DNA from: Rhizaria sp. SCN 62-66
Lineage: Eukaryota
Direction of reading: 5' to 3'
NCBI GenBank assembly: GCA_001724265.1
Contig: MEDY01000099.1
Coordinates: 57,932-77,931, forward strand
DNA length: 20,000 nt
This document shows positions 3-18,524 of this stretch, one piece after another. Numbering within the stretch: the stretch's first letter is position 1; each line of letters opens with the position of its first letter. Both the position numbers and the translations under genes were made by a program. Under the pieces are notes generated by a model. The model was not told where the DNA came from. It saw only the letters and a list, made by a program, of their open reading frames with translations, and did no database searches.

Positions 3-3000
3 ACTGGATTGTGTGTCCCTGCACCGGCTCCCGATGCCGCTTGGCAGCCTGTGACGGAAGGCGCAGAGGACCGTCTCTCAGATATGCTTGCCCTGCAGCA
101 ATGGCTCTCTGCTCCATCATCTGCACAGATGTTGCTATCCTGCGTTGGACCTGCACCTGCTGGCGCGTTGGCGTTCGAGCCACCGGCACCTGGAAGTCGC
201 TTCCGCATCGTTCCTTCAGGCACGATTTTCTTGTCGAACGCGCGTCCTGTTCGCCAACACGATGAAGACGCTGAAGTGAAACAAGAAGACAACGATAGCG
301 GTGTCGCGGGCGATGAGAAGGCGATTGCCGCCGTGCTTGCATCCGCTGCAGACACTGCATCGCTCGATCTAACACCCCGGCAGCCTGTGCTTGTGGCTGC
401 TGCCCAACGCACATTGACCGACGAGGAAGAGTTCTATATGCTTCATTCGCCCGAGCTTTATCTCGACTTTGCTCGTGGCCAGCTGGAGCTTACCCCACGT
501 GCGGCGTTGTTGGCCGACCGCCGTAGCGCTCACACCATTGCGCGTGCAGGCAGCCGCGTGTTTGAGTCGCTCGCACCTATTGACGCTACACGTGCATTTG
601 ATCCTACTGCACTTTCACTCGCCCCTCTTTCGCTTCGCTCTGTCCCTGTTGCACACGCTGCCGCTGGAACTGCACCTGAGCAGTGTGTGGTCTCTCAACA
701 CGCTGTCACATTTGCGCCCTATGCCACCACAGCCTCTGGTGCGTCTGCTGACGCAAGTAACGCACTTGTTGCATTGTCTGGCCGTCCCCAGTCAGCTGGA
801 ACCCGTGCCCGCGGGCATGCCTTAGCTGATGCAGCGGACCCTTCTGTGGCGGGTGTGCTTCACCAAGGTTTTGTGGCTGCTGTATCTGCGCGTGATGGTT
901 TCCTGAGCGCTGTCCCCGTTACGGGCCAGTCCGCGGGCGCGTTAGTGGTGGTGCCTGCGACAAGCATTGCTTTTGGCAAGTTCCGAGTTGATGGCTGCAA
1001 GAGTGACTACATCGTTTTCCGCTCTCATTATCTCGTCTCGGTTGTTGTCACTTTGCGCTGGCGCCACTCGCCAGACCAGAACCCGTTCTCCTTATCTGAC
1101 CGCACTTTCCGACTCGAACCAAAGGATGCGTACGTTGTCCAAGTGCGCTTTGAGCCAACTTCACAAGGAGCCTGTCGTGAGACATTGCAGATTGTAGTCA
1201 CAGAGCCCATCGCTTTCAGCACAAACGAAATGCTGACCTCACCCCGTGCCCGTGCAGAGGCCAGTACTCCTTCTCGCGGGTCTTTGCCTCCGGCACGCGT
1301 GCTGATGACGCGTGAGCTCATTGTTACGGGCACGGGCTACCACTCTCGATTTGACGGTCTCCCTACTCGTCTTTGCGTTGGTAGCACGCCTCTCGGTACG
1401 ATGGCTGTGACACACTTTACGCTACGTAATGTCGGCTATGTTGCTGACTCGGTCATAATCTATTGCCCGCCACCTTTCCTTGCGTCCGAGACTGAGTTCA
1501 CTCTCCCGCCTAAGGCGAGTAAGACCGTAATTCTTTTCTACATGCCTCAGCGTGCCGAAATTCTTGCACGTACTGTGTGCGTTGTTGCGGGCGCGCATCT
1601 GCATCGGTTTACTATTTCTGCCGCAGCAGGAATTTTGTCTGTTGCTGCACTCACGCACGCATCCCTGATTGCCAGGCGATCGTCGACTTCGGCTGTTTAT
1701 TCTTCAGTCTCTGCTGGAACTGGCGCTCCCCTCGACGCACTTACACAGCGCCTTCGGAATAGCAACGTGCACAATGACACTGACGCTGCTTCTACTATTG
1801 GTGCTCTGACCGCACCTGTGGTTGCCTCATGCGAGCTTGCGTTTGGCTCCGTTCCTGTGAACACAATTGTCACCATGCGTGTGTACATTGCCAACACTGG
1901 TTCCTTGCCTCTACGTGTCACTCGAGTGACTACCCAGGCGATGAACAGGCCCACTGTGACCCACCGCGGTTCTCTGCCGTCTGGGCGCACAGCCCAAAGC
2001 AGCAACTCAACAAGCGATTTTGCGTTTGTTCCTCGCCGCCTAATTTCCTCCGATTTGTCTGCACCTGCCTCACAATTAGCTGCGGCTGATGCTGCCGCGT
2101 TGGGTGGCGTTCGTGGCAGCGAGAGTGATGCTGGCGTGCGTTACACGCGCGATTTATGGGGCTGGCTCCGCTCGAACCTTGCATCAGCTGTTGAGGCTGC
2201 TCGTGAGGCCCAGGACGTGCAAGTCAACGTGCACCAAGCTTCCGAGCTTGCTGCTGCGCTTGCTGCTGCTAATGCCTACGCCAATGCGAAGCGTTCGAGC
2301 ACGGTTGTTGCCCGCTCGCGATATTTAGGAGGCAGTGACCGGGGCGCCACTGCACGTGATGCGGCGACGGCTGCGAACAACGCTGCTGCTGCCGCTGCTG
2401 CTGCAGCTGTCGCAGCTGCGGAGGCGAGTGGCATGGCTGAGCAACAGTCGTACGCCGCACAGGCGCTTGAGCGGCTGTGCGCTGTGACCATTCCTCCACG
2501 TCACTCGCTCGCCGTTGATGTTGAGTTTCGCCCGCGATCTCACGCTTCAGTTGACGCTACTGTCTTCATCACACTCTCTGAGGCACCGCCGAGCGCTGAG
2601 CCTGTGCGTGTTGCTGCTACTAACAAGGCCCTTGCACTTCGCATGTCGCCCGCTGCGGCTTCTCTGCAGGGCGGCGCATTCTCTTCTGTCACAGCAGCCG
2701 CTGTGCAGGCGCGTATGGCGCCTGTTACGGTTGTGCCTGCGCGCGCAGTTGATGCATACGCGCAGCGCTATCTCAATCTTCTTCAGGCGCGCGAGTCCGT
2801 CACCCGCGATCTCAGCGCCGTTGCGCACCCGTCCGTGCGGCTTCTGCGCCAGCGCAGGCTTGTTGAGCGTCGGCTTGAGGAGGATTATGGCGTTGAGCCA
2901 GCTGCTCGTGGAGCCGCTTGCTCTGATGCAATTTCCAGTGACGCGGGTGGCGACGGAGTCTTTGCAGAAGCTGGCGCATCTTTGATGGGTGCCAATGAAG

Positions 3001-6000
3001 CTCCTGCTGGTGCTCAAACGCTGCTGCAGACAATGCTTGCAGCTGGCCTCCGTGCGGGCTCTGCTGCATCACTTGCTGCAGCGCTGCGTATCTCCGGTAG
3101 CTGCCAGCGTTCAGTGCACTGCGCGCCCACCTCTCTTAACTTTGGTGCTGTAGCACTCGGATTGTCTCTCACTGCGCCTGCACCGTCTCGTGCCGCACTG
3201 GTTCACTCCTTTACTCAGGCAGTCAACAACAATAGTATTGCTGCGCGCTCTGGCAGCATGTCTGACTCTGCTGCTGGGTCTGCGTTTGCACTGACATCGG
3301 AGCAGCTCACTATTATTGAGGGCGAACTTGCTCCTCCTACTGGTGGTTTTATTATCACAGCTGGCGGAGTTTCTCCCGCTACAGTCTCTACATCTCGTCC
3401 ATCAACCGGCACTTCCGCATTAAGCAGCGCCACTGGCGCGAGTGCGCGCGTTAAGCAGACGCTAACGGACGTGATGACATTCTCTGTGCAGAACTCATCT
3501 CTACAGCCTCAGGACATTCTCCTTGAGGCGGTGTCTCCGTCGTGCTTCACAGTCCTGTCCAAGCGCGTGCTGTGGGTTCTGCAGCCCGGAGAGGTGGTTC
3601 ACATCCCGGTGCTCTTTACTCCGACCGTCACCACGGTCACTGCGCACGTTGGCACGCTTAACATTCCGGTTGCCGGCTCCGGAGCTGGTAAGCCTGGACG
3701 CCGTGGCTCTGCATTACTCTCGCACACACGCGTGCTGACTTCGTCACCGCCTTTGACAACCTCCAGTATCTCCTCTTCAGGCAACTCTGCTGCACCCGCA
3801 GCGACTGCAATGAGTGTGCAGCGTCAGGCGTTGCTTGTAGAGCCTACTCTAGGATCATTGCAGCTTAAGCACAAGTTTGGCACGACTTCCATTGCTCTTC
3901 GTGGTCTGGGAGCTTTTACACGTTTCGTTCTAGCTGGTGCGGATGCTATTGATGATGCTGAGCGTGCCGTGCTTGACACAGCGCTCCGTGCTGCCGCCAC
4001 GTCCGTCACCGCTAATGCCTGGAATGACGCACCCGCGCCAGCGCAGACGACTTCTGCCTCGGCAGGTTACCTGACATCGCTAAGCGGTGTTTTCACTGGT
4101 GTCCCTGGTGGCGTTGGCTCCACAGCTAATACTACGGCTGGATCTGTTGCTCTGCCTTCTGCAGCGTTGTCTTCCGGACTTGAGCGTCTGCGCCAGTCAA
4201 TCAACGCGAGCAACTCTACAGCACTTGTCGCTCCCAGCGGTACGGTGTCGCTTCCGGCTGCGCAGGACTCGTCGCTAGCTGCGAGGTTGGTGCGCGATGT
4301 GCCGCAGGGCGTGCAGCGGGCTTACCGCGCTGTGTTCCCTGCAGTGGCTGTTGGAGACCGCGTGACGCACACAATCTACGCTGTTAATACGGGCAAGCTT
4401 CCTGGCGAGGTCACTGTTGCTTGTGTGGACGCACCCTTTGCGCTCCTTGACATAGCAACAGGCGAGCCTTGCAGTGTTGTCACTACTGTCGTACCGGGTG
4501 ACTCTTCGCTCGCGCTCACGGTTGCTTGCCACCCGCTGCGTGGAGACCAACAGGTCTTCCGTGGCCGGGTGCAGCTCGCTTGGCGCGCGACGCCTACTGC
4601 GGCACCCGTCCTTGAGACAGTATATGTCACTGCAGCGGCGGGGCAGCCGCGTCTGGCATGTGACGCTACCCACGTTAACTACGGACTTGTGGTGCTACGC
4701 AAAACTGCAACGCGCGACGTGACTCTTCGCAACACGGGCGATGTCCCTCTTCGCTGGACCGCTCACGCGTTGCCGCAGCCGGGCTTCGCCGACGCTCCGC
4801 CCGCGCCCCGTGCGGCTATTGCGGCCGACGATGACGAACAGGACGGTGAGCAAGATGACCGGTCGTGGTTTGCTGTCGCGCCCGCAGGCGGCGTGATTTC
4901 GCCTCACTCTTCGTCCACGCTTCAGGTGTCGTTTGGTGCACGCAGTCTTGACGCGCTGCATAGCGCGATTGAGATCGGTGGCGATGGTGGTGCGCTGCAG
5001 CTTGTCTGCAGCGGCCGCGTGATTGTGCCGCAGTTGATGGTGCCTACCCACCTTGACCGTGATTTTGGTACTGCAACCGTGAATCAGACGCAGGAGGTGT
5101 TCTTTGAGGTTCACAATGCGGGAACTTCAACGCTATCACTTATCTCACGTATCGACAGTGTTACCACTGAAACCCCTACTGATGCCGCCGACGAAAGCTT
5201 TGTTCAGTTGATGCTGCGTGGCCGCGACGGTAGCGTACGCCCCGCTCACGCTGCACCCCGTGCTCCTCTCACAATGACTCCCGCGCTGACTTCTGCTGCT
5301 GACTCTTCTGCCGCGCTGCCTGACACAACATGCGAGGCTATGGAGCGCGTTTTCGCAGCCGAGGGTGACGCAGCAACGCAGCCTCACGTGCATCAGCAAG
5401 GGCCTTTCCAGGTTGAGCCTGCATTTGCAGAGATTCCGCCGCACTCGACGCTGCGTATTGCTGTGCGCGCGACGCCTTCACGCCTCGGTGCTCGTTCTCG
5501 TGGTCGCCTGCTTATGTGCCCCGTTTACCCGCAGTTCTCCTCCGAGCACAACCGTGACGTTTTTCGTGTTGTTGACGTGCACGCAGGCGCGCTTACCTGC
5601 CTTGGCGGTGGTCCCTCGATGCATCTGGTTGTGACAATTGACGAGGCCCGTGTGCGTGCGTGGGCTGCAGACGTGGGTGTTGATCCCATTTCCGCGTTCC
5701 CTCGCGAGGCTGGCGTTGTTCCGGTTGGTGTTGTTCGTGCAGGCACTCGTGCATCTTTGCCCGATGTTCGCCTTGTCAACAGCGGTAACATGCCCGGCCA
5801 CGTTCTGCTGCGTCCTACTAACAGTCAGCGCAGTGACTTGGATCAGGCACGCTCGCTAAATGCGCGTGTTGGCAGGACTGCCGGTGGTGCAGCCAAACAG
5901 CTCCCTGCTGCTGCTGTGCGCGGGGATGAGGAAGTGTTCTCGCTGACACCGCTGCAGGTCAAGTTATCGCCGGGCCAATCCGCGCAAGTCAGTCTTTCGT

Positions 6001-9000
6001 GCCAGAGCGCTGCCGTTGGGTTTGTTCAACGGTCATTCGACGCTTTTTGTCCCGAGGTTAACGGCATGCATGCTTTCAGTCTTCTTGCATTCACCGTGAC
6101 GCACGCGTTGCAGCTTCAGCTGCCTGCTCCGCTCGCATTTGCTGCGATTACGGGTGCTGCAGCTCTGACTCCCGCGGCTCAACATGCACAGCGCGCCCTA
6201 GGCGCATCCCCTGCTTTGGCCAGGCTTGTTGCTACTGCTTTGGCAGGCGCTGGTGGTATCTCTCACTTGCAATTTGGCATCTGCCAGAGCGGTCAAGTGC
6301 ATTCACGCTCTGTGATGTTGCATAACTCCGGCTCTATTTCGCTGACACTGACTGTCTCAGTCCGCGCTGCGCTACCAACTCTGTCATCACAGGCGACGAC
6401 ACCTGTTGCTACGGCCCCGCCGTCACGTGCGACGACGGCATCATACACAAGCGTTGTTAACCGCAATGTTGCAGCTTCTGCTCATACACTCCCTGCGCCT
6501 GCATCGATTGGTGCGCCCACGCGCGCCAAGGCTATTGCAGCCGCAGCTGCAGCTGCAGCTGTCGCCAACGGTGGCGACACCGATGACGACTTGTTTACTT
6601 CATCCGAAGATGAGGACGCTGCTGGCGCGCCTACGAAGTCTGATGACTCACTCTCGCTTGCTGCTATCCGCGAAGCGGACGCCATGCAGCGTGAGCAACA
6701 GCAGCGTGATTTTCAGGCGGCAGCTGCGACGGGCGTCGTTGAAACCCCTGTGGCTGCACCGGCCGCTCATGCGACCGACCGTCGTGGTAGCTATGGTGGC
6801 GCTGCTCAACAGACGCACGAGCTGTCATATCTTGCCAACGGGGCTGTCATTGTCACCGAGACTCCTGGCGGTGTGTTGGACGAGCGTACGCTGGACGGAT
6901 TGAAGCTGCAACAACGCCTTTCCATAATCAATTCGGACACACTGCCATTTGTTCTTATCGCTCCGCCCGACGCGAGCGCTATTGATGGCATCACTACAGC
7001 TAAGACTGGCAAGCGTGCCACCTTCGCACCCGACACTGTCGAGCCCGCAACCCCACGCGCTCCTCGTGGTCTTTCGTCTTCGAAGTCGACGATGAACTTG
7101 CTCACGGGACCCTCACTGGAGCTCCGTGTTCCTGCCGCACCACCCAGCGATGACGACAGCACTACAGGCGGCAATGACGCTGAGTGTCACGAGTTTACTG
7201 TGACAGTTCCGCCTGGCGAGCTCTTTACGTTTGAAGTGTCCTACCGGCCTCATCACAGCGGTCGTCAAGATAATGGCGTCATTGCTGTGCTGTGGCTAGG
7301 TGCTCCTTTCTTAGTGCAGCTCTCGGCGACAGGCGGTGCAGGCCGCATGCAGCTTGCTTTGCCGCCCGCACACGAGCGTGCAACAGACTTGCACGACCCC
7401 GCTGCGACATCATCAGATCCTTACGCCGAGCAAAACAGTAGCTACACATCGTTTGGCGCATCGACCTCCGCACCCTCATCCGGGCTAGTGACCCCGGTGC
7501 GTCAGCGCCGTGGTGGCGTGGGTTCACTTCCGCCTGCTTCGATGGCACCCGCACGGCGCGGTTCGAGCGGCCAAGTGGACACAATTTTCTCGCGCTTTGA
7601 GCGCGGACTGCGCCTTTCAGGTGTTGCTGGTGCTGTAGTTCCTGCGGCAATGCTGGATCTTGGCCGCCGTGTGCGCTACTTAGAGTCTCTGGAAACTATC
7701 ACGCTGACGAACGCTGGCACACTGCCGTGCCAGTACCGTATCGAGCTTGACGGCGACGGTTTGGGCCTCTGGTCTGTTGAACTGGCGCGTGCTCCCCCGC
7801 CGCTTATTGCCCCTGGCTCGACTGAGGAGGACGCTGCCGCTGCGGCGCACATGCACGTCCCCATGCTTGCGGGCCCGCCAGTGGTGTATCTCACCGGCGC
7901 TGGTAGCGCGCTACTGACCTCTCCAGCTGCCGCTGGCCGTCAGGGCGGTGACGACGACAACGACAATGCATATGGCAGTGGGCTACCGACGGCTGCGTTA
8001 GTGACGTTGTTGGCAGGCCAGAAGGCGTCTGTCACCATTTCAGTCACGGCGCTTATTCATGGTGAGTCTTTCGGCTTCATGCGTGTCTGCGAAGTTGATG
8101 ACGGCCCCACTGGCCCCGCGCGCGGCCCTGCGAGCGAGTCTGCGGGCAGCAGTGTGCCTCCACCAGACCACAACAGTCCCAACAAGCTTTACTCGCGCCT
8201 CACCATCGGTGGCGGAGCGGGGATGAGCGGTCCCTCTGGTGGCTCCAGCGCACCCCGCCGCTTGTTTGTGGTGCCGATTCGCGTTGTGGGTGGCACGTTC
8301 AACGTATCTGTGCCCGATGTTGTTGACTTTGGTGAGGTGCCCGTTGACTCACAGCTCCAGCGCCCGATCCACCTGCGAAACAAGGGCGATGTTGCCTTTC
8401 GTCTGTGTTTGTACTGCGACCCTTCACTTTATGGTAAGCTCGGCTTCCTCACCGCTGAGGCCGCTGCAGAGGCTGCTGCAGCCGCTGCTGCTGCTAATGC
8501 TGCCGCGAACCGCCGCAGCAAAGCCAATCGCGCGACCGCCGCGACTCCTGTGTCTGCCTCTGGCACTGGGCGGGTAACTGCTCCGTCCACCTTGCCAGTG
8601 CCTGCGGCATCGTCGCTGACCCAGCTGCATGTTATCACTTTGCTTCCAGGCCAGGAAGCAACTGTGCAGGCCGTATATGCCCCTGATGAGGCTGCGACCG
8701 TGGCGTCGTCAATTTGTGTGATCCCTCACTTACTGACATCACTTGCTGCTTCTGATGACGACACTGTTGGAGACACCCCTGTTGGTAATTTCATTGCACC
8801 ACCACCTGGAGCCGCTATTGCACCTGGCGCAGCCTCGCTCGGCTCCCCGCTGGCCACAGCTATGCTGCCTCCGGGCCAGTTTGCTGTCACAGCGTCGCTG
8901 AACCAGCCGCAGCTTCTGACAGGTCCCGAGTCGTCGGCACTGACGCCGCTGTACATTCCTCTGGCGGCCTCAGCGCGGCGTCTTGAGTTGGTTCTCAACG

Positions 9001-12000
9001 ACGTCACACCTGTGGCACTTGGCAAGGTCGCGTTCGGAACCACGCTTTCTGTGACACGCCTGCTCACAAACCCGACGCGCTCAGCACCACTGCGCTTCCG
9101 CCTTGACTTGCGCACAGAGACTGACGCAGATGCACTTCGCGCGGCGCATGCGAATTCCATCACTGGGCCCATTTCTGGATTCCCGGTGGCCGCTGAGAAA
9201 GAATCGATCGATGAAGCAGCGATGGCTGCTGCTCATGCCGCACTGAGGCATTGGTCAGTTATGCCTGTTGAGGGCGTACTCGAGCCTCTTTCTTCAGTTA
9301 CCGTTACAATCACATACTCCGCCACCTCTGGTGATGCTGACGCTGAACATGCTGCGGTCCTTGTGGTCATGAACGCTCTTGAGCGTGCTGGCCTTTCCGG
9401 CTCAGGCCCCGGGAAAGAAGCTCCCACAGCGGCCGTTGCGCTCTCTGCGTCTGTGGCCTTCCCGAAGCTGGAAATTGCTCCTGTGCCTCCTTTTGGACTT
9501 TGTCTCTTTCCACCTTCTCAATGTGTACCGCACTACCGCAATGGCGCTCTCAGCCGCACCAGCTCTGGTGCGCCAGCATCGTTGCATGACCTGCTGATTG
9601 CGCCCATTGCTGCTCTTCTAGCTTCTTCATCACGTCCCCAACCGCCTAGCGCGCAGCTTGGCACGACGGGCGCAATGTCGGTGCTGCCGGGTGAGGCGGC
9701 CGTGCAGCGTGCATGGCTTCCTCAGGTGTCGTCGCGGCGTTTCTTCCTGCGCAATGCTGGTACAGGCAAGATCCCTTTTAAGGCGTCTGTGGTTGTCGAT
9801 GCTGCCTTCAACCCGTCAGGCGACTGGGCTCTACAGCACCCGCCCTTCTTCATCACTGCTGCTGTTGGCGGTGCTTACAACCCGTACGCACCTGCGACTT
9901 CCCCCGCTGTGCACACTGTGTCTGCGTCCGGTGCTGGTGCCGCGTGGCGTCGCGCTGTTCATTCCGACGGTCTTCTGCGCGCGCGCTCTGCCGCACGCGT
10001 CTTGCCGGAGCTTTTGGCTGCAGAGACAGGTGGTCGCGTTGCTGCTGGCATTAACAAAAACACGCTTGCTGCCATCACACAGCGTTCTGCAGGTGTCGCT
10101 TGGGGTCGCCGTGCGGTTCCTGCCGCTGGTGAGCATGCGGACTCTGTGTTTGCACGCCCATTTTTCTCTGCTGTCGAGGAGGGTGCTACTACTGCTGTTG
10201 ATGTCTGGTTTGCACCTACGCACGCGGGCCTCTATCGCGCATTCTTGCTCCTTGAATCTCCTGCTGGTACGGAACGCGTTGCATTGCTCGGCATTGGCTC
10301 CAGCATGGCGCTCACTGTTGACATGTTCACCACCGCAGCGCTCTCCGCGCATCCTCGATCGCTCGCCGTTGCTGCGGGACGAGTGTCACCACGTGTGCTT
10401 GCCGCCGCTGTTGCTGCTGCTGCGTTGCGGACGGAGTCCTTCACGGCAGGCGTGTCCGCGCGCACAGTAATGGCAAACGCAGCACAGAGCGCGATTGATC
10501 TCGGCGATATTGCTATCGGTGCTTCAATCACGCATCGAATCACGCTCAGCAACTCCAGTGGACATCCCGTTGTTGTGTCGGCCACGCTTAATCCCGAGGC
10601 TGGCGCTGCGGAAGCTGCGGCTGGCGCACTTATCCAAGCACTCGCTCCACAGCTGCACTATATCGGCCGCAGCCTCTTCGCATCATATACACGTGGACCC
10701 CTCGCTCTTCTGCAACGTGCGTTGGTGCCTGAATGGAGCTTGGACGAGCCTTGGAGCCTCTCCGCTGCCGATATTGCTGCGGTCCCAGGCTCTTCGGAGT
10801 CTCCTGTCGCGTCGCTTCTTACGGCTACATTGTCTCAACGCGCGCTTTCTGTAATTGCTCACGCGTTGGCGGCTCGCGGCCCTGCTGATGCAACTGTGTT
10901 TGATTCGGAGATCTCTCTTGCCGCTGCGAAACCAGCAGGTGCGGTTGAGCCGAGCCCAATATTGAGTCCTGCCGCTTCATCTACTCCCGCGGTAATGTCT
11001 ACAACTGATCTTGCACGTGGTCTCAGCACACTGGTGCTGCTCACGCGCCACTTCCAGCAGGATTCTTCTGTGTTTAACGCGCCGCTTCTGAGCGCGCATG
11101 TTGACCATTACTCTCGGTCCGCAGCGGCACCCCGCACTGTCGAGCAGCAGTCTGAGTGGGCTCCCGATGCGCCGTACGGACTCGCCCTTGATGTCACGTT
11201 TCCAGACACTGCTGATGACGATGCCGACGTAACACCGATGTTGCAAGACCGTTCGATGCCGGGTGCGGTCGGCGCCGTCGACACGGTCGGAGCGGCTGCT
11301 GCGGCACGCCAGCGTCTGCGCGAACTTCGCACCCGTCTGCGTCTCTCACGGCGTTTACACTCTATTGCAGCTGCAACACCAATTGCTGCGACGCTGCGCG
11401 CGTTAGTGGCGGCTGTGTGGGGTGATGAGCTGATTTTGCTTGCTGACGCCGAAGCTGTGGACATTGAACCTGTCACTACGCATCTTTCACCTGCTCGTCA
11501 GGCGCGTGTCGCGCGCTGGGTACAACTTGCGGCTGCGTTGTTGCAAGCGCGTGATTCGGCACCTGCGCTGACTGATGCATTATCTGTAGCTGATGGTGTT
11601 CCTGTGGCACAAGCTTTGCCTGTGCTGACGGTCGGCTCTGATGGTGTGGCCCACTGCGACGCACAGTCTGCCGATGGACTGGCGGGCATGCGTGGACAGC
11701 GCGTGCTACCGCTGCTCACGGTTTTTCCGACAAGTCTGATTCTGGGCACTCGTGACGTTGATGCTGATGCCACGGCTTCACCCTCTGGGACGCCCAGCAA
11801 ACGCACGCGTGCACCACGTCCTGGTTTCCGTCTCGCACTTGCTGGCTCTGCTGGTGACGACGGTACTGTTGGACGGGAGGCGGACGCGGCTCGTGCGCGC
11901 CGTGCACTGGCGCTGCTGCCAATTGTGATTGCTAAGACACATGCCTCTCTAGAGGCGTTGCGCAATGAGCGCGAAGCTGAAGGCTCTGCTGGCGGCGATG

Positions 12001-15000
12001 GAGATGCAGCTGTGACGATTTCTATGATTGGACTCGGCGTGGGCTCATCTTCCGTTGATACGGATGGCGGCGATGGCGCTGTCTTTGCGGGGCTCACGCG
12101 TGAGGAAGAAGAGATCGCTGTCCGCGCGTCTCCGAATGCTGCACCCATTGCTACGCAAGATGATGATGCCGATCTCCGCGCTGTGCTGGCACTTGCGCGC
12201 TTTGCACTTGGGTTCTGTCCCTTTGCACCGGGTGTGGTCCGTGCATACGCAGAGCAGTGCATTATCGCACAGACGCGCGCCTCCGGTGAGCGCGATCCCC
12301 GCGCACCTTTGCCAGCATTTGACTCCCGCGATTTTGCCGATGCTGAGCTTGATGCGACGTTGGTGGGTGCTGCCGAGGCTGCAGCTGACGATGCTGTAGT
12401 TGTTGTTCTCCGTGAGGAGACGCGCCGTAAGCGTCGTGACGCCGCTAGCTCTCCCATTTCATCTCTCTCTTCGTCCGACTCAGCCTCTGATCTTCAGGCA
12501 ATTGCTGCGGGCCTCACCTCGGCCGACCAGAGCCCTTTCTCACTGCACGCTCTTTTCGTGCACGCGCGCCGCGCGCAACAAGAAACGGACCCCGCTGCCG
12601 GAAGTGCTAGTAATATTCGCGCGCGCCGCGAGCGCTACGCTGATACAGCGAGGACGCCCGCTGACCTGCCCGCTGCTCAGCACGTGTTTGTTCACGTTTT
12701 ACCGGAGCTGCCTATGATCACACATTCCGAGCTCACTGCGCGCAACCACTCTGACTCTGCTGCCCCGTCGCCAGCTATTTCGACTGCTACGTTCGGATTC
12801 GCAGGCACGGTCTCTGCGCATCCGACAGAGCCGGTGAATTCGGCGCTGTTGGTGCCTGACCCGCTGTTCTTGCGACGCGTGCTTGCGGCACAGGCGTTTT
12901 CTCGCACGCTTTATGTGACATCACCAGCAGGCGTGACACCGCTGACGGTGCGTGGCCGTGCTGTATTGTTGCCGATGCAACTCTCGCGCACCGCTCTTGA
13001 TATTGGACAGTGCTTCACCAACACACCTGTTGTGCGCCGCATCACCTTGCACAACCCTAACGCGGTTAACATGCCTTTCTCAGCTCAGACCAACTACGTC
13101 GCTTTTTCCGTGCAGCCGCCTGCGGGCGTGGTGCCAGCATACGGCTCAGTCGAGTTGGCAGTGCGCTTTTTGTCTTCGATTGCCCTTGACACGCGTAACC
13201 GCATCGCTGTGGCAGAACAGTGCACGCTGACTGTTTCAACCTATGGTGAACCTATTCTGGCTTTGCAGACTCTGCCGCTTGATGCGCAGTGCACCAACTA
13301 CGTGTTGGATACGGATCTTCTTACACCAGTTGATTTCGGGCACATTTTGCTCAATTCAACGACTGTTGCTACGCGTACCTTCCGGAACGCTTGTGACATC
13401 GATGTGCATTATACGCTTACTTTCGTCCCCGACGACGTTTCCGCCGCCGCTGCTGCAACTGCAGGTGTGGATCCTACGACGGTCTTCTCACTCGTACCTG
13501 CTGCGAACCGTACACACGATGCAGATCTGGATGCTTTCTCTGCCGGTCCGACCGCCGCGGGCGGCGCTGTGCGTATCCGAGCTGCGGATCGTGACGCAGT
13601 TATTCCTGCATTGGGTCACCGCGTGGTGCAGGTTGCTTTTACGCCACAATCGCGCGTGTCGCTTGCTGGCCACCTTGTTATTGATACGCGTGCGGGCCCC
13701 TACGCCATCCCCGTACGCGGTGTGGGCGTCGAGCCGACTGTGTCCGTTACTGGGCCGATCGACCCGCACTTGGGCACGAGCCGCACCGCCGTCGCGACGC
13801 TGTTGCCTGGCGGCGGCTTTGCGCCCCCTCACCTTGATGTTCCATTCGGTCTTACTGGCTTTGGTCAGCCCATGCAGCAGTGCTTCCAGGTCGAAAACAC
13901 GTGCTCACTGCCATTGCGCCTAAACTGCCAATGGCACCGCGTGCGCGTCAATACATGGGAGCCCAGCGCGGACCCCGACTCAGGCGGCATTGCCATGAAG
14001 GCTGAGGCCGACGTATGCCTGCGCTGGTCGCTTTCGCGCGAAGCCGCTTGGCTGCAGCCGGGGCAGGTGTGCGTTCTTACAGTCGTGTACCAGCCTACGA
14101 TGCCTCCTGAGGCTCTGGGCCGCCTTTTGCATCTGGACGAGGAAGACTCGGAGACCGCACAGGCTAACGATCGCGCGCGTGATGAACTTGCTGCGTTGCG
14201 TCGCTGGTATGACGACAACGACGACGACGATGACGCGGCAAACGATGCTGCTGGCGGCGATGACAATAGTACTGTCGATGCCCGTGCGCTAGCTATGCGC
14301 TCCCCTGGTGCAGACGCGGAGGAGGATAACGAGTCTGACGGTGCAGTGGAGATGCCATCCGTGCGCGATTGGGTTGCCAAGTCGCCCGCTGAACTGCTTG
14401 AGGAGCAGCGCCTGCGCCAACGCCAGGCGCGTGAGAAGTCACTTGAGCGCGCTGCGAAAAGTCGTGCTCGTTCGCTGCGTGGCCGTTTGGCTCGCCCTAA
14501 CGGCACGAACGGGACCAATGGTGTGTGGCGCACTCTCTTTGCCTCCGCGAACGGCCCCGCATCTCCCACAGCAACAGCTGCTGGCGGTCTCTTTGAGGCC
14601 GCGCTGGGCGACGGTCCTGTGGATGAGGAGACTCTGCAACGCATGCTGGCGCGCTTCCAGGACCGTGGCACGCTCGAGGTTTTCCACGACGAATGGCCGC
14701 GCCCCGTGCTTGCGCTTGCCGTGTCTGGCCGCGGCGGTGCACTGCGTCTCCACGTCGCTGCCGCGCCGTCTGTCGCCGACTTTGGTGCATCGCTACTTCC
14801 TTCGGCTACGGCCGCGCCCGCTCCGAATAAGAGCGGCGCTCTTGAGGTGCGCTTCGGTAGCATTCCTCTCGACACCGCGCGGTCGCGCACTATTACGGTC
14901 GCCAACCGCGGCCAGGTTCCGCTTTGTCTTGCTGCCGCACTCTCCACTGGCACTGGCGCAACTGTTGCATACGCTGCGGGCGCTATGGCCACTGGTGTTG

Positions 15001-15875
15001 CTGGCGCCGATGCGGGTGTGATTTCCGGATTGGCGATGAGCTCGAGCGCGACGCTGCTGGGCGGATTGGTGAGTACAATGTCCTCACAGGCGGGCAGTGC
15101 TCGAATCGCGCTTGCGGCTGGGGGCGCTGATGACAGCTCGAACAATAGAGACTCGAGAGCGCCTGTGCCCTACTCGGCCTCAGCATCCTCATCCAGCGCC
15201 GTCGTAACGGGGTTGCCCGCAGTGGTGCTGGTGGTGGAGCCGGGACAAGAGCGCACTTTCACCGTAGTGACACAGCTGCGCCGCAAGGGCACGTTTTCCT
15301 TCCGCGTGCGCTTCTGGTTGCTGGGCTGCGCACCGCCGGTCTATTCGGCAGCGTCGATGGCCGTCGCGACGGGTACCTCGAACGGCTCTGCTCTTGTGAC
15401 TGCAACCTCGCCCACCCCCGCGGCGAACGGTTCGGGTCTGGCCGCAGCGCCGCAGTTTACGCGTGTTGCGGGTTTCTCGCGCCAGTGGGACGCAGCGTGC
15501 GTGGCCTTTGGCGACGAGATTGAGCTCTCGGCCGCGGCGGCCGCGACGTTGCTGGAGGAGCAGCGCGGTGGCACTGGTCCCGACGGTGCCCCGCGCGGTC
15601 TCTTTGCGTACGACTCACTGCATGAGGAGCTGGCCACGAGTGCCGCTATGACAACTGTCACGTCGACCGACTCGTTCGGGCTCGTAGCGCCTGTGTCTCT
15701 GCACGCGCTTACCTCGCTCTCCGCACTCGAGCCGCAGGTAGACGCGGACCCGCTTGCCGAGCTGCTTGCTGTGCCTGTCGCACTGGGTCCGGAGATCATG
15801 GGTGGTTTCCGCCGCTGGTACCACAGCCGCGCTCCTCTCCGCATGACCAAGGACTCAAAAAACAACAATTTCTAA
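3..15875 (+). CDS. Giant multi-ASH (ASPM/SPD-2/Hydin)-type Ig-like repeat protein, Hydin/CFAP47/CFAP65/DLEC1-like superfamily; 5'-partial, >5,290 aa, no intron needed within the window
   Basis: The frame is open from base 3 (ACT GGA TTG), so the TTG at 9 is not the real start; stop TAA at 15873-15875, followed by AT-rich sequence. The ASH-like signature 'l-d-FG-x-v ... i-t-l-x-N-x-G-x-x-P ... F-x-v-x-P-x-x-G-x-l-x-P-G ... v-x-v-x-F-x-P ... l-x-G-x-G' recurs about 18 times, e.g. ELAFGSVPVNTIVTMRVYIANTGSLPL, VNYGLVVLRKTATRDVTLRNTGDVPLRW..WFAVAPAGGVISP, VDFGEVPVDSQLQRPIHLRNKGDVAF, LDIGQCFTNTPVVRRITLHNPN..FSVQPPAGVVPAYGSVELAVRF, VRFGSIPLDTARSRTITVANRGQVPL. Family call is by motif recognition, not a database search. 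Confidence 0.85.
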   Translation, partial: TGLCVPAPAPDAAWQPVTEGAEDRLSDMLALQQWLSAPSSAQMLLSCVGPAPAGALAFEPPAPGSRFRIVPSGTIFLSNARPVRQHDEDAEVKQEDNDSGVAGDEKAIAAVLASAADTASLDLTPRQPVLVAAAQRTLTDEEEFYMLHSPELYLDFARGQLELTPRAALLADRRSAHTIARAGSRVFESLAPIDATRAFDPTALSLAPLSLRSVPVAHAAAGTAPEQCVVSQHAVTFAPYATTASGASADASNALVALSGRPQSAGTRARGHALADAADPSVAGVLHQGFVAAVSARDGFLSAVPVTGQSAGALVVVPATSIAFGKFRVDGCKSDYIVFRSHYLVSVVVTLRWRHSPDQNPFSLSDRTFRLEPKDAYVVQVRFEPTSQGACRETLQIVVTEPIAFSTNEMLTSPRARAEASTPSRGSLPPARVLMTRELIVTGTGYHSRFDGLPTRLCVGSTPLGTMAVTHFTLRNVGYVADSVIIYCPPPFLASETEFTLPPKASKTVILFYMPQRAEILARTVCVVAGAHLHRFTISAAAGILSVAALTHASLIARRSSTSAVYSSVSAGTGAPLDALTQRLRNSNVHNDTDAASTIGALTAPVVASCELAFGSVPVNTIVTMRVYIANTGSLPLRVTRVTTQAMNRPTVTHRGSLPSGRTAQSSNSTSDFAFVPRRLISSDLSAPASQLAAADAAALGGVRGSESDAGVRYTRDLWGWLRSNLASAVEAAREAQDVQVNVHQASELAAALAAANAYANAKRSSTVVARSRYLGGSDRGATARDAATAANNAAAAAAAAAVAAAEASGMAEQQSYAAQALERLCAVTIPPRHSLAVDVEFRPRSHASVDATVFITLSEAPPSAEPVRVAATNKALALRMSPAAASLQGGAFSSVTAAAVQARMAPVTVVPARAVDAYAQRYLNLLQARESVTRDLSAVAHPSVRLLRQRRLVERRLEEDYGVEPAARGAACSDAISSDAGGDGVFAEAGASLMGANEAPAGAQTLLQTMLAAGLRAGSAASLAAALRISGSCQRSVHCAPTSLNFGAVALGLSLTAPAPSRAALVHSFTQAVNNNSIAARSGSMSDSAAGSAFALTSEQLTIIEGELAPPTGGFIITAGGVSPATVSTSRPSTGTSALSSATGASARVKQTLTDVMTFSVQNSSLQPQDILLEAVSPSCFTVLSKRVLWVLQPGEVVHIPVLFTPTVTTVTAHVGTLNIPVAGSGAGKPGRRGSALLSHTRVLTSSPPLTTSSISSSGNSAAPAATAMSVQRQALLVEPTLGSLQLKHKFGTTSIALRGLGAFTRFVLAGADAIDDAERAVLDTALRAAATSVTANAWNDAPAPAQTTSASAGYLTSLSGVFTGVPGGVGSTANTTAGSVALPSAALSSGLERLRQSINASNSTALVAPSGTVSLPAAQDSSLAARLVRDVPQGVQRAYRAVFPAVAVGDRVTHTIYAVNTGKLPGEVTVACVDAPFALLDIATGEPCSVVTTVVPGDSSLALTVACHPLRGDQQVFRGRVQLAWRATPTAAPVLETVYVTAAAGQPRLACDATHVNYGLVVLRKTATRDVTLRNTGDVPLRWTAHALPQPGFADAPPAPRAAIAADDDEQDGEQDDRSWFAVAPAGGVISPHSSSTLQVSFGARSLDALHSAIEIGGDGGALQLVCSGRVIVPQLMVPTHLDRDFGTATVNQTQEVFFEVHNAGTSTLSLISRIDSVTTETPTDAADESFVQLMLRGRDGSVRPAHAAPRAPLTMTPALTSAADSSAALPDTTCEAMERVFAAEGDAATQPHVHQQGPFQVEPAFAEIPPHSTLRIAVRATPSRLGARSRGRLLMCPVYPQFSSEHNRDVFRVVDVHAGALTCLGGGPSMHLVVTIDEARVRAWAADVGVDPISAFPREAGVVPVGVVRAGTRASLPDVRLVNSGNMPGHVLLRPTNSQRSDLDQARSLNARVGRTAGGAAKQLPAAAVRGDEEVFSLTPLQVKLSPGQSAQVSLSCQSAAVGFVQRSFDAFCPEVNGMHAFSLLAFTVTHALQLQLPAPLAFAAITGAAALTPAAQHAQRALGASPALARLVATALAGAGGISHLQFGICQSGQVHSRSVMLHNSGSISLTLTVSVRAALPTLSSQATTPVATAPPSRATTASYTSVVNRNVAASAHTLPAPASIGAPTRAKAIAAAAAAAAVANGGDTDDDLFTSSEDEDAAGAPTKSDDSLSLAAIREADAMQREQQQRDFQAAAATGVVETPVAAPAAHATDRRGSYGGAAQQTHELSYLANGAVIVTETPGGVLDERTLDGLKLQQRLSIINSDTLPFVLIAPPDASAIDGITTAKTGKRATFAPDTVEPATPRAPRGLSSSKSTMNLLTGPSLELRVPAAPPSDDDSTTGGNDAECHEFTVTVPPGELFTFEVSYRPHHSGRQDNGVIAVLWLGAPFLVQLSATGGAGRMQLALPPAHERATDLHDPAATSSDPYAEQNSSYTSFGASTSAPSSGLVTPVRQRRGGVGSLPPASMAPARRGSSGQVDTIFSRFERGLRLSGVAGAVVPAAMLDLGRRVRYLESLETITLTNAGTLPCQYRIELDGDGLGLWSVELARAPPPLIAPGSTEEDAAAAAHMHVPMLAGPPVVYLTGAGSALLTSPAAAGRQGGDDDNDNAYGSGLPTAALVTLLAGQKASVTISVTALIHGESFGFMRVCEVDDGPTGPARGPASESAGSSVPPPDHNSPNKLYSRLTIGGGAGMSGPSGGSSAPRRLFVVPIRVVGGTFNVSVPDVVDFGEVPVDSQLQRPIHLRNKGDVAFRLCLYCDPSLYGKLGFLTAEAAAEAAAAAAAANAAANRRSKANRATAATPVSASGTGRVTAPSTLPVPAASSLTQLHVITLLPGQEATVQAVYAPDEAATVASSICVIPHLLTSLAASDDDTVGDTPVGNFIAPPPGAAIAPGAASLGSPLATAMLPPGQFAVTASLNQPQLLTGPESSALTPLYIPLAASARRLELVLNDVTPVALGKVAFGTTLSVTRLLTNPTRSAPLRFRLDLRTETDADALRAAHANSITGPISGFPVAAEKESIDEAAMAAAHAALRHWSVMPVEGVLEPLSSVTVTITYSATSGDADAEHAAVLVVMNALERAGLSGSGPGKEAPTAAVALSASVAFPKLEIAPVPPFGLCLFPPSQCVPHYRNGALSRTSSGAPASLHDLLIAPIAALLASSSRPQPPSAQLGTTGAMSVLPGEAAVQRAWLPQVSSRRFFLRNAGTGKIPFKASVVVDAAFNPSGDWALQHPPFFITAAVGGAYNPYAPATSPAVHTVSASGAGAAWRRAVHSDGLLRARSAARVLPELLAAETGGRVAAGINKNTLAAITQRSAGVAWGRRAVPAAGEHADSVFARPFFSAVEEGATTAVDVWFAPTHAGLYRAFLLLESPAGTERVALLGIGSSMALTVDMFTTAALSAHPRSLAVAAGRVSPRVLAAAVAAAALRTESFTAGVSARTVMANAAQSAIDLGDIAIGASITHRITLSNSSGHPVVVSATLNPEAGAAEAAAGALIQALAPQLHYIGRSLFASYTRGPLALLQRALVPEWSLDEPWSLSAADIAAVPGSSESPVASLLTATLSQRALSVIAHALAARGPADATVFDSEISLAAAKPAGAVEPSPILSPAASSTPAVMSTTDLARGLSTLVLLTRHFQQDSSVFNAPLLSAHVDHYSRSAAAPRTVEQQSEWAPDAPYGLALDVTFPDTADDDADVTPMLQDRSMPGAVGAVDTVGAAAAARQRLRELRTRLRLSRRLHSIAAATPIAATLRALVAAVWGDELILLADAEAVDIEPVTTHLSPARQARVARWVQLAAALLQARDSAPALTDALSVADGVPVAQALPVLTVGSDGVAHCDAQSADGLAGMRGQRVLPLLTVFPTSLILGTRDVDADATASPSGTPSKRTRAPRPGFRLALAGSAGDDGTVGREADAARARRALALLPIVIAKTHASLEALRNEREAEGSAGGDGDAAVTISMIGLGVGSSSVDTDGGDGAVFAGLTREEEEIAVRASPNAAPIATQDDDADLRAVLALARFALGFCPFAPGVVRAYAEQCIIAQTRASGERDPRAPLPAFDSRDFADAELDATLVGAAEAAADDAVVVVLREETRRKRRDAASSPISSLSSSDSASDLQAIAAGLTSADQSPFSLHALFVHARRAQQETDPAAGSASNIRARRERYADTARTPADLPAAQHVFVHVLPELPMITHSELTARNHSDSAAPSPAISTATFGFAGTVSAHPTEPVNSALLVPDPLFLRRVLAAQAFSRTLYVTSPAGVTPLTVRGRAVLLPMQLSRTALDIGQCFTNTPVVRRITLHNPNAVNMPFSAQTNYVAFSVQPPAGVVPAYGSVELAVRFLSSIALDTRNRIAVAEQCTLTVSTYGEPILALQTLPLDAQCTNYVLDTDLLTPVDFGHILLNSTTVATRTFRNACDIDVHYTLTFVPDDVSAAAAATAGVDPTTVFSLVPAANRTHDADLDAFSAGPTAAGGAVRIRAADRDAVIPALGHRVVQVAFTPQSRVSLAGHLVIDTRAGPYAIPVRGVGVEPTVSVTGPIDPHLGTSRTAVATLLPGGGFAPPHLDVPFGLTGFGQPMQQCFQVENTCSLPLRLNCQWHRVRVNTWEPSADPDSGGIAMKAEADVCLRWSLSREAAWLQPGQVCVLTVVYQPTMPPEALGRLLHLDEEDSETAQANDRARDELAALRRWYDDNDDDDDAANDAAGGDDNSTVDARALAMRSPGADAEEDNESDGAVEMPSVRDWVAKSPAELLEEQRLRQRQAREKSLERAAKSRARSLRGRLARPNGTNGTNGVWRTLFASANGPASPTATAAGGLFEAALGDGPVDEETLQRMLARFQDRGTLEVFHDEWPRPVLALAVSGRGGALRLHVAAAPSVADFGASLLPSATAAPAPNKSGALEVRFGSIPLDTARSRTITVANRGQVPLCLAAALSTGTGATVAYAAGAMATGVAGADAGVISGLAMSSSATLLGGLVSTMSSQAGSARIALAAGGADDSSNNRDSRAPVPYSASASSSSAVVTGLPAVVLVVEPGQERTFTVVTQLRRKGTFSFRVRFWLLGCAPPVYSAASMAVATGTSNGSALVTATSPTPAANGSGLAAAPQFTRVAGFSRQWDAACVAFGDEIELSAAAAATLLEEQRGGTGPDGAPRGLFAYDSLHEELATSAAMTTVTSTDSFGLVAPVSLHALTSLSALEPQVDADPLAELLAVPVALGPEIMGGFRRWYHSRAPLRMTKDSKNNNF
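2382..2421 (+). repeat. GCN trinucleotide tract encoding poly-Ala in the giant ORF
   Basis: GCTGCTGCTGCCGCTGCTGCTGCAGCT... encodes AAAAAAAAAVAAA. Similar tracts occur near 6531-6566 and 8454-8507. Confidence 0.8.
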
Positions 15876-16116: not shown

Positions 16117-16974
16117 TCAATCGTCGTGAAGGTAAAGCGAGTTAAGGCCCGAGAAGCCCGCAGCAACGCCGCCCTCGTTGGTGCCCTCCTTCTTGGTGCG
16201 CAGCAGGTACCCCGCGTAGGCGTTGAGCAGCGGCACAGGCCCCGCGGGTGTCTCATGGTCCGCCTGCGCTTCCGCCTCAGCATCGGCGGCATCAGGGTTG
16301 CGCGAGGCGCGCGCCGTGCCTGCTGTGGCGCTGTTCGCGGGCGCGAAGTCGATCGTGGCAGCGGCGGCAGGCGCACGGCCGTTGCCGTCGCCACCGTCGG
16401 AGAGCATGACCGCGTACACGCCCAGCTCCGACACGCAGGGCCCGACCGAGACATCGCCCAGCCGCATCAGCGCCTGCGTGGCCGTGCCAGCGCGGATGCG
16501 CGCCATAAGGATGAACGCGGCGCGCTCTTCGGACGCCATCATCTGCAGCTTGGCGACCATCTCATCGCCCCAGAAGTTGTTGCCGCCGCCCTCGCGCTGT
16601 GGCTTGAGCACGAAGTCGTCGGGGTTGGCCACGGCGCGCGCGATGATGGCGCGCGTGGCATCGTCGTCGCCTTCAAGCGGCCAGATGCCCGCGAAGAGCT
16701 GCGCCAGCCGGTCCGCGTGGCGCGGGGAGAGGTAGCGCCGGAGCACGGCCGGATCCGCCAGCACCTGCTGCACCTTCTTAGTGCCTGCGAGATGGTGCGC
16801 CACGGAAGGGCACTTGATGGCGAGGGAGAGCTCCATGTTCAGCATCGCCTCTTCCTCCGCTGCGCCGGGGAAGTCGGCCGGGGTGTAGCCAGCGCGGTAA
16901 TACACCAGCGCCACGCGCGCGCCGTCGACGAACAGCGCGCCGGTCGCAGCGTCAACGCGGGCGCACTTATGTAG
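16117..16974 (-). CDS. GSS: Glutathione synthetase, coding exon 2 (285 aa + stop; spliced protein 565 aa)
   Basis: The acceptor CAATAG|CTA gives in-frame LHKCARVDAATGALFVDGARVALVYYRAGY. Motifs AIKCPSV, LAGTKKVQQ, FVLKPQREGGGNN, SELGVY, GYLLRTK and EGGVAAG follow. Stop TGA is at 16119-16117. Confidence 0.95.
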   Translation of the reverse strand, partial: LHKCARVDAATGALFVDGARVALVYYRAGYTPADFPGAAEEEAMLNMELSLAIKCPSVAHHLAGTKKVQQVLADPAVLRRYLSPRHADRLAQLFAGIWPLEGDDDATRAIIARAVANPDDFVLKPQREGGGNNFWGDEMVAKLQMMASEERAAFILMARIRAGTATQALMRLGDVSVGPCVSELGVYAVMLSDGGDGNGRAPAAAATIDFAPANSATAGTARASRNPDAADAEAEAQADHETPAGPVPLLNAYAGYLLRTKKEGTNEGGVAAGFSGLNSLYLHDD

Positions 16975-17103
16975 CTATTGCCAGTCAAACAAGGAACAAG
17001 GAGCAAGAAAAAAAACGTGCGTGAGCATTTGAAACAAGATATCGAATCAATCGATGTTATTCTTCCCATAACAACGTGCACATAACAAAGATAGCGCGCG
17101 GAC
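16975..17103 (-). other. Spliceosomal intron in GSS (129 nt, phase 0)
   Basis: GTCCGC donor, T-rich body with polypyrimidine tract (TTTTTTTTCTTGCTCCTTGTTCCTTG), TTGAC branch-like motif and TAG acceptor. It contains an in-frame stop, and removing it joins two GSS-like ORFs in frame. Confidence 0.9.
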
Positions 17104-17943: not shown

Positions 17944-18524
17944 ATAAGGCCGAACTAGTGGAGAGTACAGGCGTGAGCAAGAACGCAAAACAGGTGAGCA
18001 AAACGGGAAAGCAGGGGAAGAGGCGCGCACGCAAACGGAGTTCGGGAACACTGACGACGTAATTCGAGTACGAGCCAACTAAAAAGGGCGGTTCTGTCGC
18101 GAGATAGAGTGTTTTGAAAGTGATATTTTCGCGACAAATTTTAATCCACTAGATACGTTGCGTTGCACAGCCTTTAACCCTAGCTGACGACCGAACATGC
18201 CTGTTTAGCACGCATTTCAGACATGCAGTCCGTATCTTCGTCATCCTGCCAGAAACAGGCACCGCGCGAAACGACGAAGTTAAAACATAGCTAGCACTTC
18301 ACAACTTCCGTTAGCTGATAATTGGTAGGCGTTTTAGGATTTTATAGACAATATCTTACGTAAATACTATTTGAAACTTATAAAATGTGCCATTATCCCT
18401 CATTTGCAAACGCGTTTCTCGCTTGCAGACACACGCTCCTTTCGTGGAGGGTGACCAACGCGTGCGCATCTTTCCCTTGAGCTACTCACTGAGTGCCTGA
18501 GGCTCAGACTTGCCCCAGACGCAG
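17944..18524. promoter_or_regulatory. Divergent (head-to-head) intergenic region, putative bidirectional promoter for GSS and the Frag1/DRAM/Sfk1 gene
   Basis: 581 bp between two divergent ATGs with an AT-rich core. TATAAAA lies at 18379-18385, followed by an Inr-like TCATTT at 18400-18405 on +. Promoter function is inferred from gene geometry. Confidence 0.55.
17955..18030 (-). other. Probable 5'-UTR intron of GSS (76 nt)
   Basis: On the minus strand: GTGCGC donor-like site, long pyrimidine tract, two GCTCAC branch-like motifs and a CTAG acceptor 11 nt upstream of the ATG. No transcript data support it. Confidence 0.55.

Follow-up and report, generated by a model that had tools for sequence, protein, structure and literature searches.

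A probable loop-expanded member of an unnamed family of giant ASH-domain proteins

Which family, if any, does a protein of several thousand residues belong to when it resembles the ASH-domain chains of cilia but obviously matches none of them? This question is raised by contig MEDY01000099.1 of Rhizaria sp. SCN 62-66, of which we analysed a stretch of 20,000 nucleotides (the window). A single frame without stops covers positions 3 to 15875 of its forward strand, with 5,290 codons and a stop codon at 15873-15875, and runs past the window start, leaving the 5' end open. Because random codons at 60% guanine-plus-cytosine (GC) content would include about 3.2% stops (calculated), an open frame of 5,290 codons is not due to chance and is a real coding frame. 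The original prediction described a giant protein of more than 5,290 residues that starts upstream, carries about 18 tandem ASH modules and is either a highly diverged orthologue of some named ASH protein or a lineage-specific scaffold. Its size and upstream start hold, given the open 5' end of the frame and a homology to the metagenome protein P0002 that begins at P0002 residue 3708. What is new here is an extreme member of a conserved, unnamed family of ASH giants, distinct from the solved ciliary ones.

Relatives and family membership

A HMMER scan of 1.84 billion representatives, with residues 1441-2640 of the window protein as the query rather than a family profile, returned only 43 proteins at E ≤ 0.001 and two at E ≤ 1e-30, which are the unnamed metagenome proteins P0002 (6,317 residues) and P0003 (2,875 residues). 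The named matches were GBG33905.1 of Hondaea fermentalgiana (P0007; 5,050 residues) and uncharacterised proteins of Boothiomyces, Spizellomyces and Polychytrium (4,244-4,757 residues). Bacterial 'choice-of-anchor D domain-containing' proteins were also among the 43 (P0012, P0017, P0034 and P0037, from Caldilineaceae, Parabeggiatoa and bacterium HR19), and show that bacterial ASH-like Ig domains lie near eukaryotic ones at the level of the domain.

SPPG_08927 of Spizellomyces punctatus (XP_016611917.1; 4,757 residues) has 31 relatives at E ≤ 1e-10, 30 of them named and from chytrid-type fungi and one unnamed, most being 4,000-5,100 residues long. They are labelled in databases as 'hypothetical' or 'HYDIN/VesB/CFA65-like Ig-like domain-containing', with machine labels of CFAP47 (2/31) and CFAP65. 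The idea of a lineage-specific scaffold thus gives way to a conserved family of about 4,800 residues, whose members come from Hondaea fermentalgiana and 30 named chytrid-type fungi. The chytrid-type genera that carry it are zoospore-forming fungi. Thraustochytrids have flagellated zoospores according to the abstract of a zoospore proteome paper (PMC12221091), whose main text does not mention hydin, PapD or CFAP. Five accessions of family members are named in no paper in the literature searched, and a keyword search, judged by titles and the starts of abstracts, yielded no paper recognised as dealing with the family.

Other searches were far less productive. A word-indexed homologue search with residues 1-5000 gave none of 1,061 scored candidates at E ≤ 0.001 and one with P0009 recovered only itself; two of the three word-indexed searches are insensitive to so divergent a protein. 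With phmmer against the PDB, there were no matches for the first 4,999 residues, for residues 241-720 or for P0003, and the last 990 residues gave only one chance match, to a phage tail tube (E 0.34).

The window protein is tied to the SPPG_08927-like proteins by the order in which it matches them. BLAST against P0003 gave seven high-scoring segment pairs, six of which form one ascending chain (E down to 1.5e-31), and BLAST against P0002 gave six (E down to 9e-31), with one chain of five that pairs residues 286-4701 of the window protein with P0002 residues 3708-6024. A family profile, made as a hidden Markov model (HMM) from an alignment of 10 chytrid proteins, scores 142.9 bits on the window protein. 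All five rows with an independent E-value (i-E) ≤ 0.1 ascend, with residues 439-543, 1134-1210, 1619-1713, 2993-3124 and 4331-4470 matching from profile positions 2051, 2389, 2641, 3650 and 4070; one of three further, insignificant rows is clearly off the diagonal. Adjacent pairs of profile rows are likewise in order in P0002 (10/11), P0007 of Hondaea (7/7), P0023 (8/8), P0020 (7/8) and P0009 (5/5), and P0003 is also matched in order. The bacterial 'choice-of-anchor D' proteins, used as controls, are out of order (5/9, 2/4, 2/4 and 1/2 pairs).

The family layout consists of a long non-Ig N-terminal region, an ASH chain and a short C-terminal motif. The N-terminal region (profile positions below 1300) is matched by P0002, P0003, P0007, P0020 and P0023 as well. 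Repeats like P-x-G-[FY]-T-x-x-G-x-P-[YF]-[YF] occur within it, at profile positions of about 950-1100, in P0030, P0003, P0020, P0023 and P0002; no Pfam family listed covers this repeat region, which scores 97 bits in P0003 and serves as the family's best marker outside the ASH domains. In the chytrid alignment the ASH chain takes up about 3,350 positions of the profile, which corresponds to roughly 28 modules by division, not by count. The C-terminal motif, [KR][KR]W[YH]xxR, stands about 40-55 residues from the C-terminus in P0002, P0008, P0009, P0028, P0030, P0033 and P0038. The window protein ends with GFRRWYHSRAPLRMT; the corresponding forms are TFKKWYTDRVPLRMT in P0002, FRKWYSGR in P0009 and KKWYMNR in chytrids, with a variant, PKWHxNR, in Hondaea and P0023, and in every case the motif lies no more than about 95 residues from the C-terminus. 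The window therefore contains about 18 of the family's ASH modules and this motif.

Given the match order, its C-terminal motif and the bridge formed by P0002 and P0003, we regard the window protein as very probably the C-terminal portion of a family member that has diverged and gained expanded loops. It shares ASH order, C-terminal motif and fold with the SPPG_08927-like and Hondaea proteins, and is far more divergent than its relatives, with 143 bits against the chytrid profile where Hondaea and P0002 reach 319-589 bits.

ASH modules, their fold and their loops

Pfam was run on three overlapping pieces of the window protein and on 44 segments of 240 residues (the last of 130 residues). Scores well exceeded the gathering cut-offs, given here in brackets, for ASH at 91.5 bits (27), HYDIN_VesB_CFA65-like_Ig at 71.8 (25.5), Cep192_D4 at 84.1 (35.5) and Ig_CFAP65_4th at 64.4 (27), and 14 of the 44 segments had an ASH-type match at E ≤ 0.001. 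Our own HMM was built from eight compact modules and finds those eight by construction; it also found non-seed modules or half-modules at residues 609-873, 2088-2247, 2394-2432, 2770-2836, 3001-3120, 3497-3532, 4613-4699 and 4948-4976. Fifteen module-like positions carry the N-x-G strand motif. Many modules consist of an N-half and a C-half parted by low-complexity sequence. The places of the 18 modules first proposed agree with Pfam, our HMM and the N-x-G motif to within a few tens of bases, except that the third probably ends near 2621 and not at 3100. The weakest, seen through the motif or weak HMM rows alone, are the N-half of module 4 (i-E 0.38 with our HMM), module 13 and the C-halves of modules 14, 17 and 18.

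Two segments were folded with AlphaFold: residues 1441-2050 together with 27 relatives (model 1) and residues 1900-2995 (model 2). Model 1 has a mean predicted local distance difference test (pLDDT) score of 83.4 and comprises four beta-sandwiches, every one of them with a low-confidence or helical loop after its third or fourth strand; the loop of module 6 (model residues 150-182) has low pLDDT. The best 20 Foldseek matches listed from the PDB are all central-apparatus chains (9ijj, 7som, 7sqc, 7n6g and 7n61; E 8e-27 to 9e-14) and include DLEC1, CFAP65, CFAP74, Hydin, FAP81 and CFAP47 with no clear favourite. Model 2 has an overall pLDDT of only 53, yet confident strands flank its inserts; module 8 is confident in model 1 and poor in model 2. 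The HYDIN PapD-like domain 2ys4 aligned to model 2 residues 547-866 (Z 9.7, root mean square deviation 1.9, 98/122 residues), and the two-ASH SPD-2 region of CEP192 (7ptb) to residues 548-1012 (Z 13.4). Since both alignments run across inserts, the split modules 10 and 11 are predicted to fold as single sandwiches round disordered loops. The modules had been expected to be Ig-like beta-sandwiches, and in these models they are, with no failure to fold. In module 9, predicted strands flank the insert on both sides (pLDDT 60-83), and the pairing of its halves is putative. A protein atlas queried with residues 1441-2160 returned generic ASH clusters only. Several alignments were not used for folding: one of the fragment with full-length relatives spread over 10,394 columns, one of module 14 with the protein's own modules was scattered, and two more were off register at the first modules.

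The inserts occupy a constant location in modules 6-11, past the N-x-G strand and ahead of the F-x-v-x-P strand. They are rich in alanine, serine and glycine or acidic, range from 30 to about 740 residues, and lie at one place of the fold in many modules, which marks one loop of the ASH fold as a hot spot for expansion. The insert of about 740 residues in module 14 is alanine-rich and partly helical, and the presumed C-half of that module lies outside both folded segments, as do residues 3533-4270, which might conceal a folded domain. At the homologous place in P0002 and P0003, an N-half is likewise followed by a partly helical insert of lesser length, so at least this insert is older than the window lineage.

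Loops inserted at this one place account for the extra length of the window protein, which has 5,290 residues against 2,840 positions of the chytrid profile (about 1,850-4,688) and is thus about 1.9 times as long as the SPPG_08927-like proteins over the common part. Its composition is also unlike theirs, with 17.5% alanine; serine makes up 9.1% and lysine only 0.9%. GC content is highest at the first codon position and lowest at the third (0.69, 0.57 and 0.56 for positions 1, 2 and 3), so the alanine richness belongs to the protein itself and is more than a result of genomic GC pressure. Judging by the length ratio and by the first match in P0002, which comes after about 3,700 of its residues, the complete protein would probably have 7,000-9,000 residues, of which the open reading frame probably encodes the C-terminal two-thirds or less.

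Named ciliary proteins and possible functions

To our knowledge, all solved ASH-domain chains (Hydin, CFAP47, CFAP65, CFAP74 and DLEC1/FAP81) lie along the central-pair microtubules and tie projections. Hydin has 33 ASH domains and an ADK-like domain, and CFAP47, a protein of the C1-C2 bridge, has a CH domain as well as its ASH domains. We compared the family with Chlamydomonas and mouse chains in the PDB, namely Hydin, FAP65/CFAP65, FAP74/CFAP74, FAP81/DLEC1, FAP47/CFAP47, CFAP221 and CEP192, all of which are matched by the chytrid profile. The scores are highest for Hydin (Chlamydomonas 7sqc_F0, 186 bits, E 2.2e-54; mouse 9ijj_4G, 160 bits, E 1.4e-46), followed by FAP65 (75 bits), FAP74 (72), CFAP65 (65), FAP81 (44), CFAP74 (41), DLEC1 (40), mouse CFAP47 (29 bits, E 4.8e-07), Chlamydomonas FAP47 (28 bits, E 1.1e-06) and CEP192 (≤16), with one stretch each for CFAP47 and FAP47. 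The order of the stretches was examined for Hydin, FAP65 and FAP74, the last being the only one so examined among CFAP74, DLEC1 and CEP192. Hydin gave 15 stretches in Chlamydomonas and 18 in mouse, each ≤32 bits and out of order, with profile region 3261-3572 reused at four or five places. FAP65 gave seven, each ≤23.5 bits and out of order, and FAP74 behaved alike.

Such small, scattered and out-of-order stretches point to likeness between domains and not to orthology, so the proposed orthology to a named ASH protein, however divergent, does not stand. The companion statement that no named family obviously matches does stand, as there is no collinearity with Hydin, CFAP47, CFAP65, CFAP74, DLEC1 or CEP192. 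The failure to recognise an ADK-like region or a CH domain also agrees with Pfam: neither Hydin_ADK nor CH appears at E ≤ 1 in the window part of the protein, Hydin_ADK is absent from the lists of eight relatives at E ≤ 1e-05, and CH is absent from the relatives' lists. We therefore lean, with moderate confidence, towards a separate ASH-chain family with no orthologue among the ASH proteins solved in the central apparatus of Chlamydomonas or mouse.

How do the individual orthologies fare? Hydin, a C2b central-pair scaffold, resembles the family as a giant chain of ASH/PapD-like Ig domains of similar structure, size and module number; among solved proteins it matches the family profile best, and it is the sole PDB match of residues 1441-2160 (E 3.2e-06). 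A very divergent Hydin orthologue is nevertheless highly improbable in view of the disordered stretches and the missing Hydin_ADK, and also because Hydin lacks the family's long non-Ig N-terminal region, about 1,300 residues without a significant Hydin match (one stretch, i-E 170), and because SPPG_08927 alone reaches only 59.5 bits against mouse Hydin. A survey of 184 fungal proteomes, in the part used here, moreover tabulates a separate HYDIN orthogroup of 22 fungal proteins for flagellated fungi, as grouped counts and not same-species pairs (PMC13358043, supplement file 1). TPX65369, which clusters with SPPG_08927 at 90% identity, is placed by the same survey in the column of a 'CFAP65' orthogroup marked as specific to flagellated fungi (PMC13358043); it has 23 fungal proteins, which we read as roughly one per flagellated species, the figure counting proteins and not species. 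This, along with matches to several CFAP65-named Pfam models, would suit an N-terminally extended orthologue of CFAP65/FAP65, a protein of the C2a projection. We consider that unlikely, since the profile scores for FAP65 and mouse CFAP65 are far below those for Hydin, the best solved match, and both the FAP65 stretches and the position-specific Pfam CFAP65 models are out of order, the latter running 9th, 7th, Ig_CFAP65, 4th and 8th on SPPG_08927. CFAP65/FAP65, CFAP74/FAP74, DLEC1/FAP81 and CEP192 share with the family the ASH fold, generic Pfam models and a place among the top structural neighbours, but have only 1,600-2,500 residues. The remaining candidate, CFAP47/FAP47, is likewise a chain, of 20 ASH domains (PMC12297659, in the part used here), and two of the 31 family members bear the GenBank name 'Cilia- and flagella-associated protein 47'. 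Its orthology is very unlikely, as its single stretches are weaker than the matches to five other ASH proteins and neither the window part nor the Pfam list of any chytrid member shows a CH domain.

Some points weigh against our identification and what we build on it. The 143 bits of the window protein against the chytrid profile are no more than Hydin obtains (186 bits), the N-terminal hallmark region is expected upstream of the window, beyond the part compared, and two chytrid members are machine-named CFAP47 while one is filed under CFAP65 (PMC13358043). As for function, a role in flagella or on microtubules is proposed purely by analogy. ASH domains occur in the centrosomal protein CEP192 and in Golgi and TRAPP proteins too.

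The analogy is with chains such as Hydin, which docks bead by bead around C1 and C2, and CFAP47, which does so in the bridge (PMC12297659). By this comparison the window protein would be an extended, flexible scaffold of the flagellar or centriolar apparatus in a zoospore-forming protist, with ASH beads that dock on microtubules or neighbouring proteins and disordered loops that point away from the docking faces. The zoospore-forming habit of the carriers points to the zoospore flagellum or its base and is the one ground for the original suggestion that the organism may be flagellated, and we put a flagellar role of the family at about even chances. The same family might instead work elsewhere, at the centrosome or spindle, at the Golgi in the manner of the TRAPP and OCRL ASH proteins, or serve as a general spacer in the cytoskeleton; CEP192, TRAPPII and OCRL all occur among the structural matches, and the family is collinear with no solved Chlamydomonas or mouse central-apparatus protein. 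We see this as a minor prospect, since all named carriers form zoospores and the orthogroup with a family member is marked as specific to flagellated fungi (PMC13358043). Returning to a separate flagellar family, a bolder version, which we offer only tentatively and think rather doubtful, is that it is an ancient further lineage of giant ASH chains in opisthokont (chytrid) and stramenopile (thraustochytrid) zoospore-formers that matches no solved Chlamydomonas or mouse central-apparatus protein and marks a structure, in or at the base of the zoospore flagellum, that has yet to be described. If so, the window copy would be its extreme form, with a long disordered brush on nearly every ASH bead, the chain doubling as a spacer or bristle.

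The locus, its occurrence and its meaning

Table 1. Features of the 20,000-nucleotide window (aa, residues of the window protein; family HMM, chytrid profile; own HMM, built from eight modules; model, AlphaFold model 1 unless stated).
Feature	Position	Strand	Evidence or remark
Open reading frame	3..15875	+	Stop-free single exon; C-terminal part of a bigger gene starting upstream of the window
ASH module 1	948..1280 (aa 316-426)	+	Pfam ASH 41.7-45.4 bits; own-HMM seed
ASH module 2	1362..1640 (aa 454-546)	+	Family HMM aa 439-543 vs profile 2051-2155; own-HMM seed
ASH module 3, Ala-rich insert	1827..2621 (aa 609-873)	+	Own HMM i-E 6.6e-09, non-seed; Pfam HYDIN_VesB_CFA65 Ig aa 611-653
ASH module 4, split	3117..3671	+	Pfam Cep192_D4 aa 1154-1223; family HMM aa 1134-1210 vs profile 2389-2462
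ASH module 5	4335..4643	+	Model residues 2-107, pLDDT ~90
ASH module 6, 33-aa acidic loop	4653..5027	+	Model residues 111-234; family HMM aa 1619-1713, i-E 5e-08
ASH module 7, ~50-aa loop	5034..5642	+	Model residues 246-440
ASH module 8, helical loop	5709..6101	+	Model residues 465-592
ASH module 9, ~270-aa insert	6264..7298	+	Own HMM N-half aa 2088-2247, C-half aa 2394-2432
ASH module 10, split	7659..8295	+	Model 2 residues 652-866; HYDIN PapD-like domain 2ys4 alignment
ASH module 11, poly-Ala/Ser split	8310..8980	+	CEP192 SPD-2 (7ptb) alignment; BLAST aa 2757-2809 vs P0002, P0003
ASH module 12	9003..9362	+	Own HMM i-E 1.1e-06; family HMM aa 2993-3124 vs profile 3650-3779
ASH module 13, split, weak	9465..10300	+	N-x-G aa 3247; own HMM i-E 0.11; BLAST aa 3391-3451 vs P0003
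ASH module 14, N-half, ~740-aa insert and presumed C-half	10491..12965	+	N-half aa 3497-3532, i-E 5.6e-03
ASH module 15	12975..13295	+	Pfam Ig_CFAP65_4th 35.3 bits, HYDIN_VesB_CFA65 Ig 30.2 bits; family HMM aa 4331-4470
ASH module 16	13320..13730	+	Own-HMM seed; BLAST aa 4303-4701 vs P0002 5710-6024
ASH module 17, acidic coiled insert	13839..14740	+	Own HMM aa 4613-4699, i-E 8e-04; C-half by sequence reading alone
ASH module 18, split	14844..15320	+	Own HMM aa 4948-4976, i-E 7.7e-05; C-half likewise
C-terminal motif RRWYHSR	15810..15830 (aa 5270-5276 of 5290)	+	15 residues ahead of the stop
Eukaryotic glutathione synthase	16117..18078	-	Pfam GSH_synth_ATP 176 + 146 bits on its two halves
Frag1/DRAM/Sfk1-family membrane protein	18510..19661	+	Two in-frame pieces

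All stretches of 90 nucleotides in the giant frame have at least 45% GC, so that no hidden intron is apparent there. Both neighbouring genes are interrupted: the glutathione synthase gene at about 16915-17046 by 132 nucleotides with two in-frame stops, and the Frag1/DRAM/Sfk1 gene at about 18948-19040 by some 93 nucleotides with stops and 40% GC. The breaks look like short introns, and no RNA contig spanned the one in the glutathione synthase gene. Short introns in both neighbours would point to a compact eukaryotic contig with few introns, in which the giant frame is most simply one exon. Scans for tRNAs and Rfam families found none in the window, its end (19344-20000) included.

The contig is that of an uncultured eukaryote which occurs in wastewater and bioreactor runs: 95-100% of the words sampled from window positions 9001-19000 were found in four public runs, two of them bioreactor metagenomes, one a wastewater metagenome and one unlabelled, from a study that also has activated-sludge runs. 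The upstream part of the gene was sought across metagenome contigs; an exact 60-base scan recovered nothing, and a degenerate scan with residues 301-700 gave 55 pattern matches and no relatives. Contigs from a polyA metatranscriptome match the open reading frame at seven places with no mismatches and also match the glutathione synthase gene. Those on the giant frame fit its transcription; on the other side of the balance, such libraries can carry DNA. All 15 RNA joints shown (15/15) were read as artefacts and not as introns, since all lie in GCN low-complexity runs and have short sides of 20-26 letters. In one public run, summed contig depth reached 162 at 19344-20000 and 63 at 2002-2668, against 4-9 in most other bins, and many loose contig ends lie near 19902-19931 in the run with these jumps. 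The rise at 2382-2418 is explained by a GCN (poly-alanine) run common to other sequences.

What does such a protein mean for its family? The ciliary central apparatus has the ASH-chain giants Hydin, CFAP47, CFAP65, CFAP74 and DLEC1 as its girders, and human ciliary disease results when such giants are defective. Automated CFAP47 or CFAP65 labels on multi-ASH proteins are unreliable. The window copy shows the extent to which loops can inflate at one point of a fold while the frame stays open for about 16 kb. Altogether, the existence of one more conserved family built in this way suggests a component of the flagellum or centriole that is missing from both model structures.

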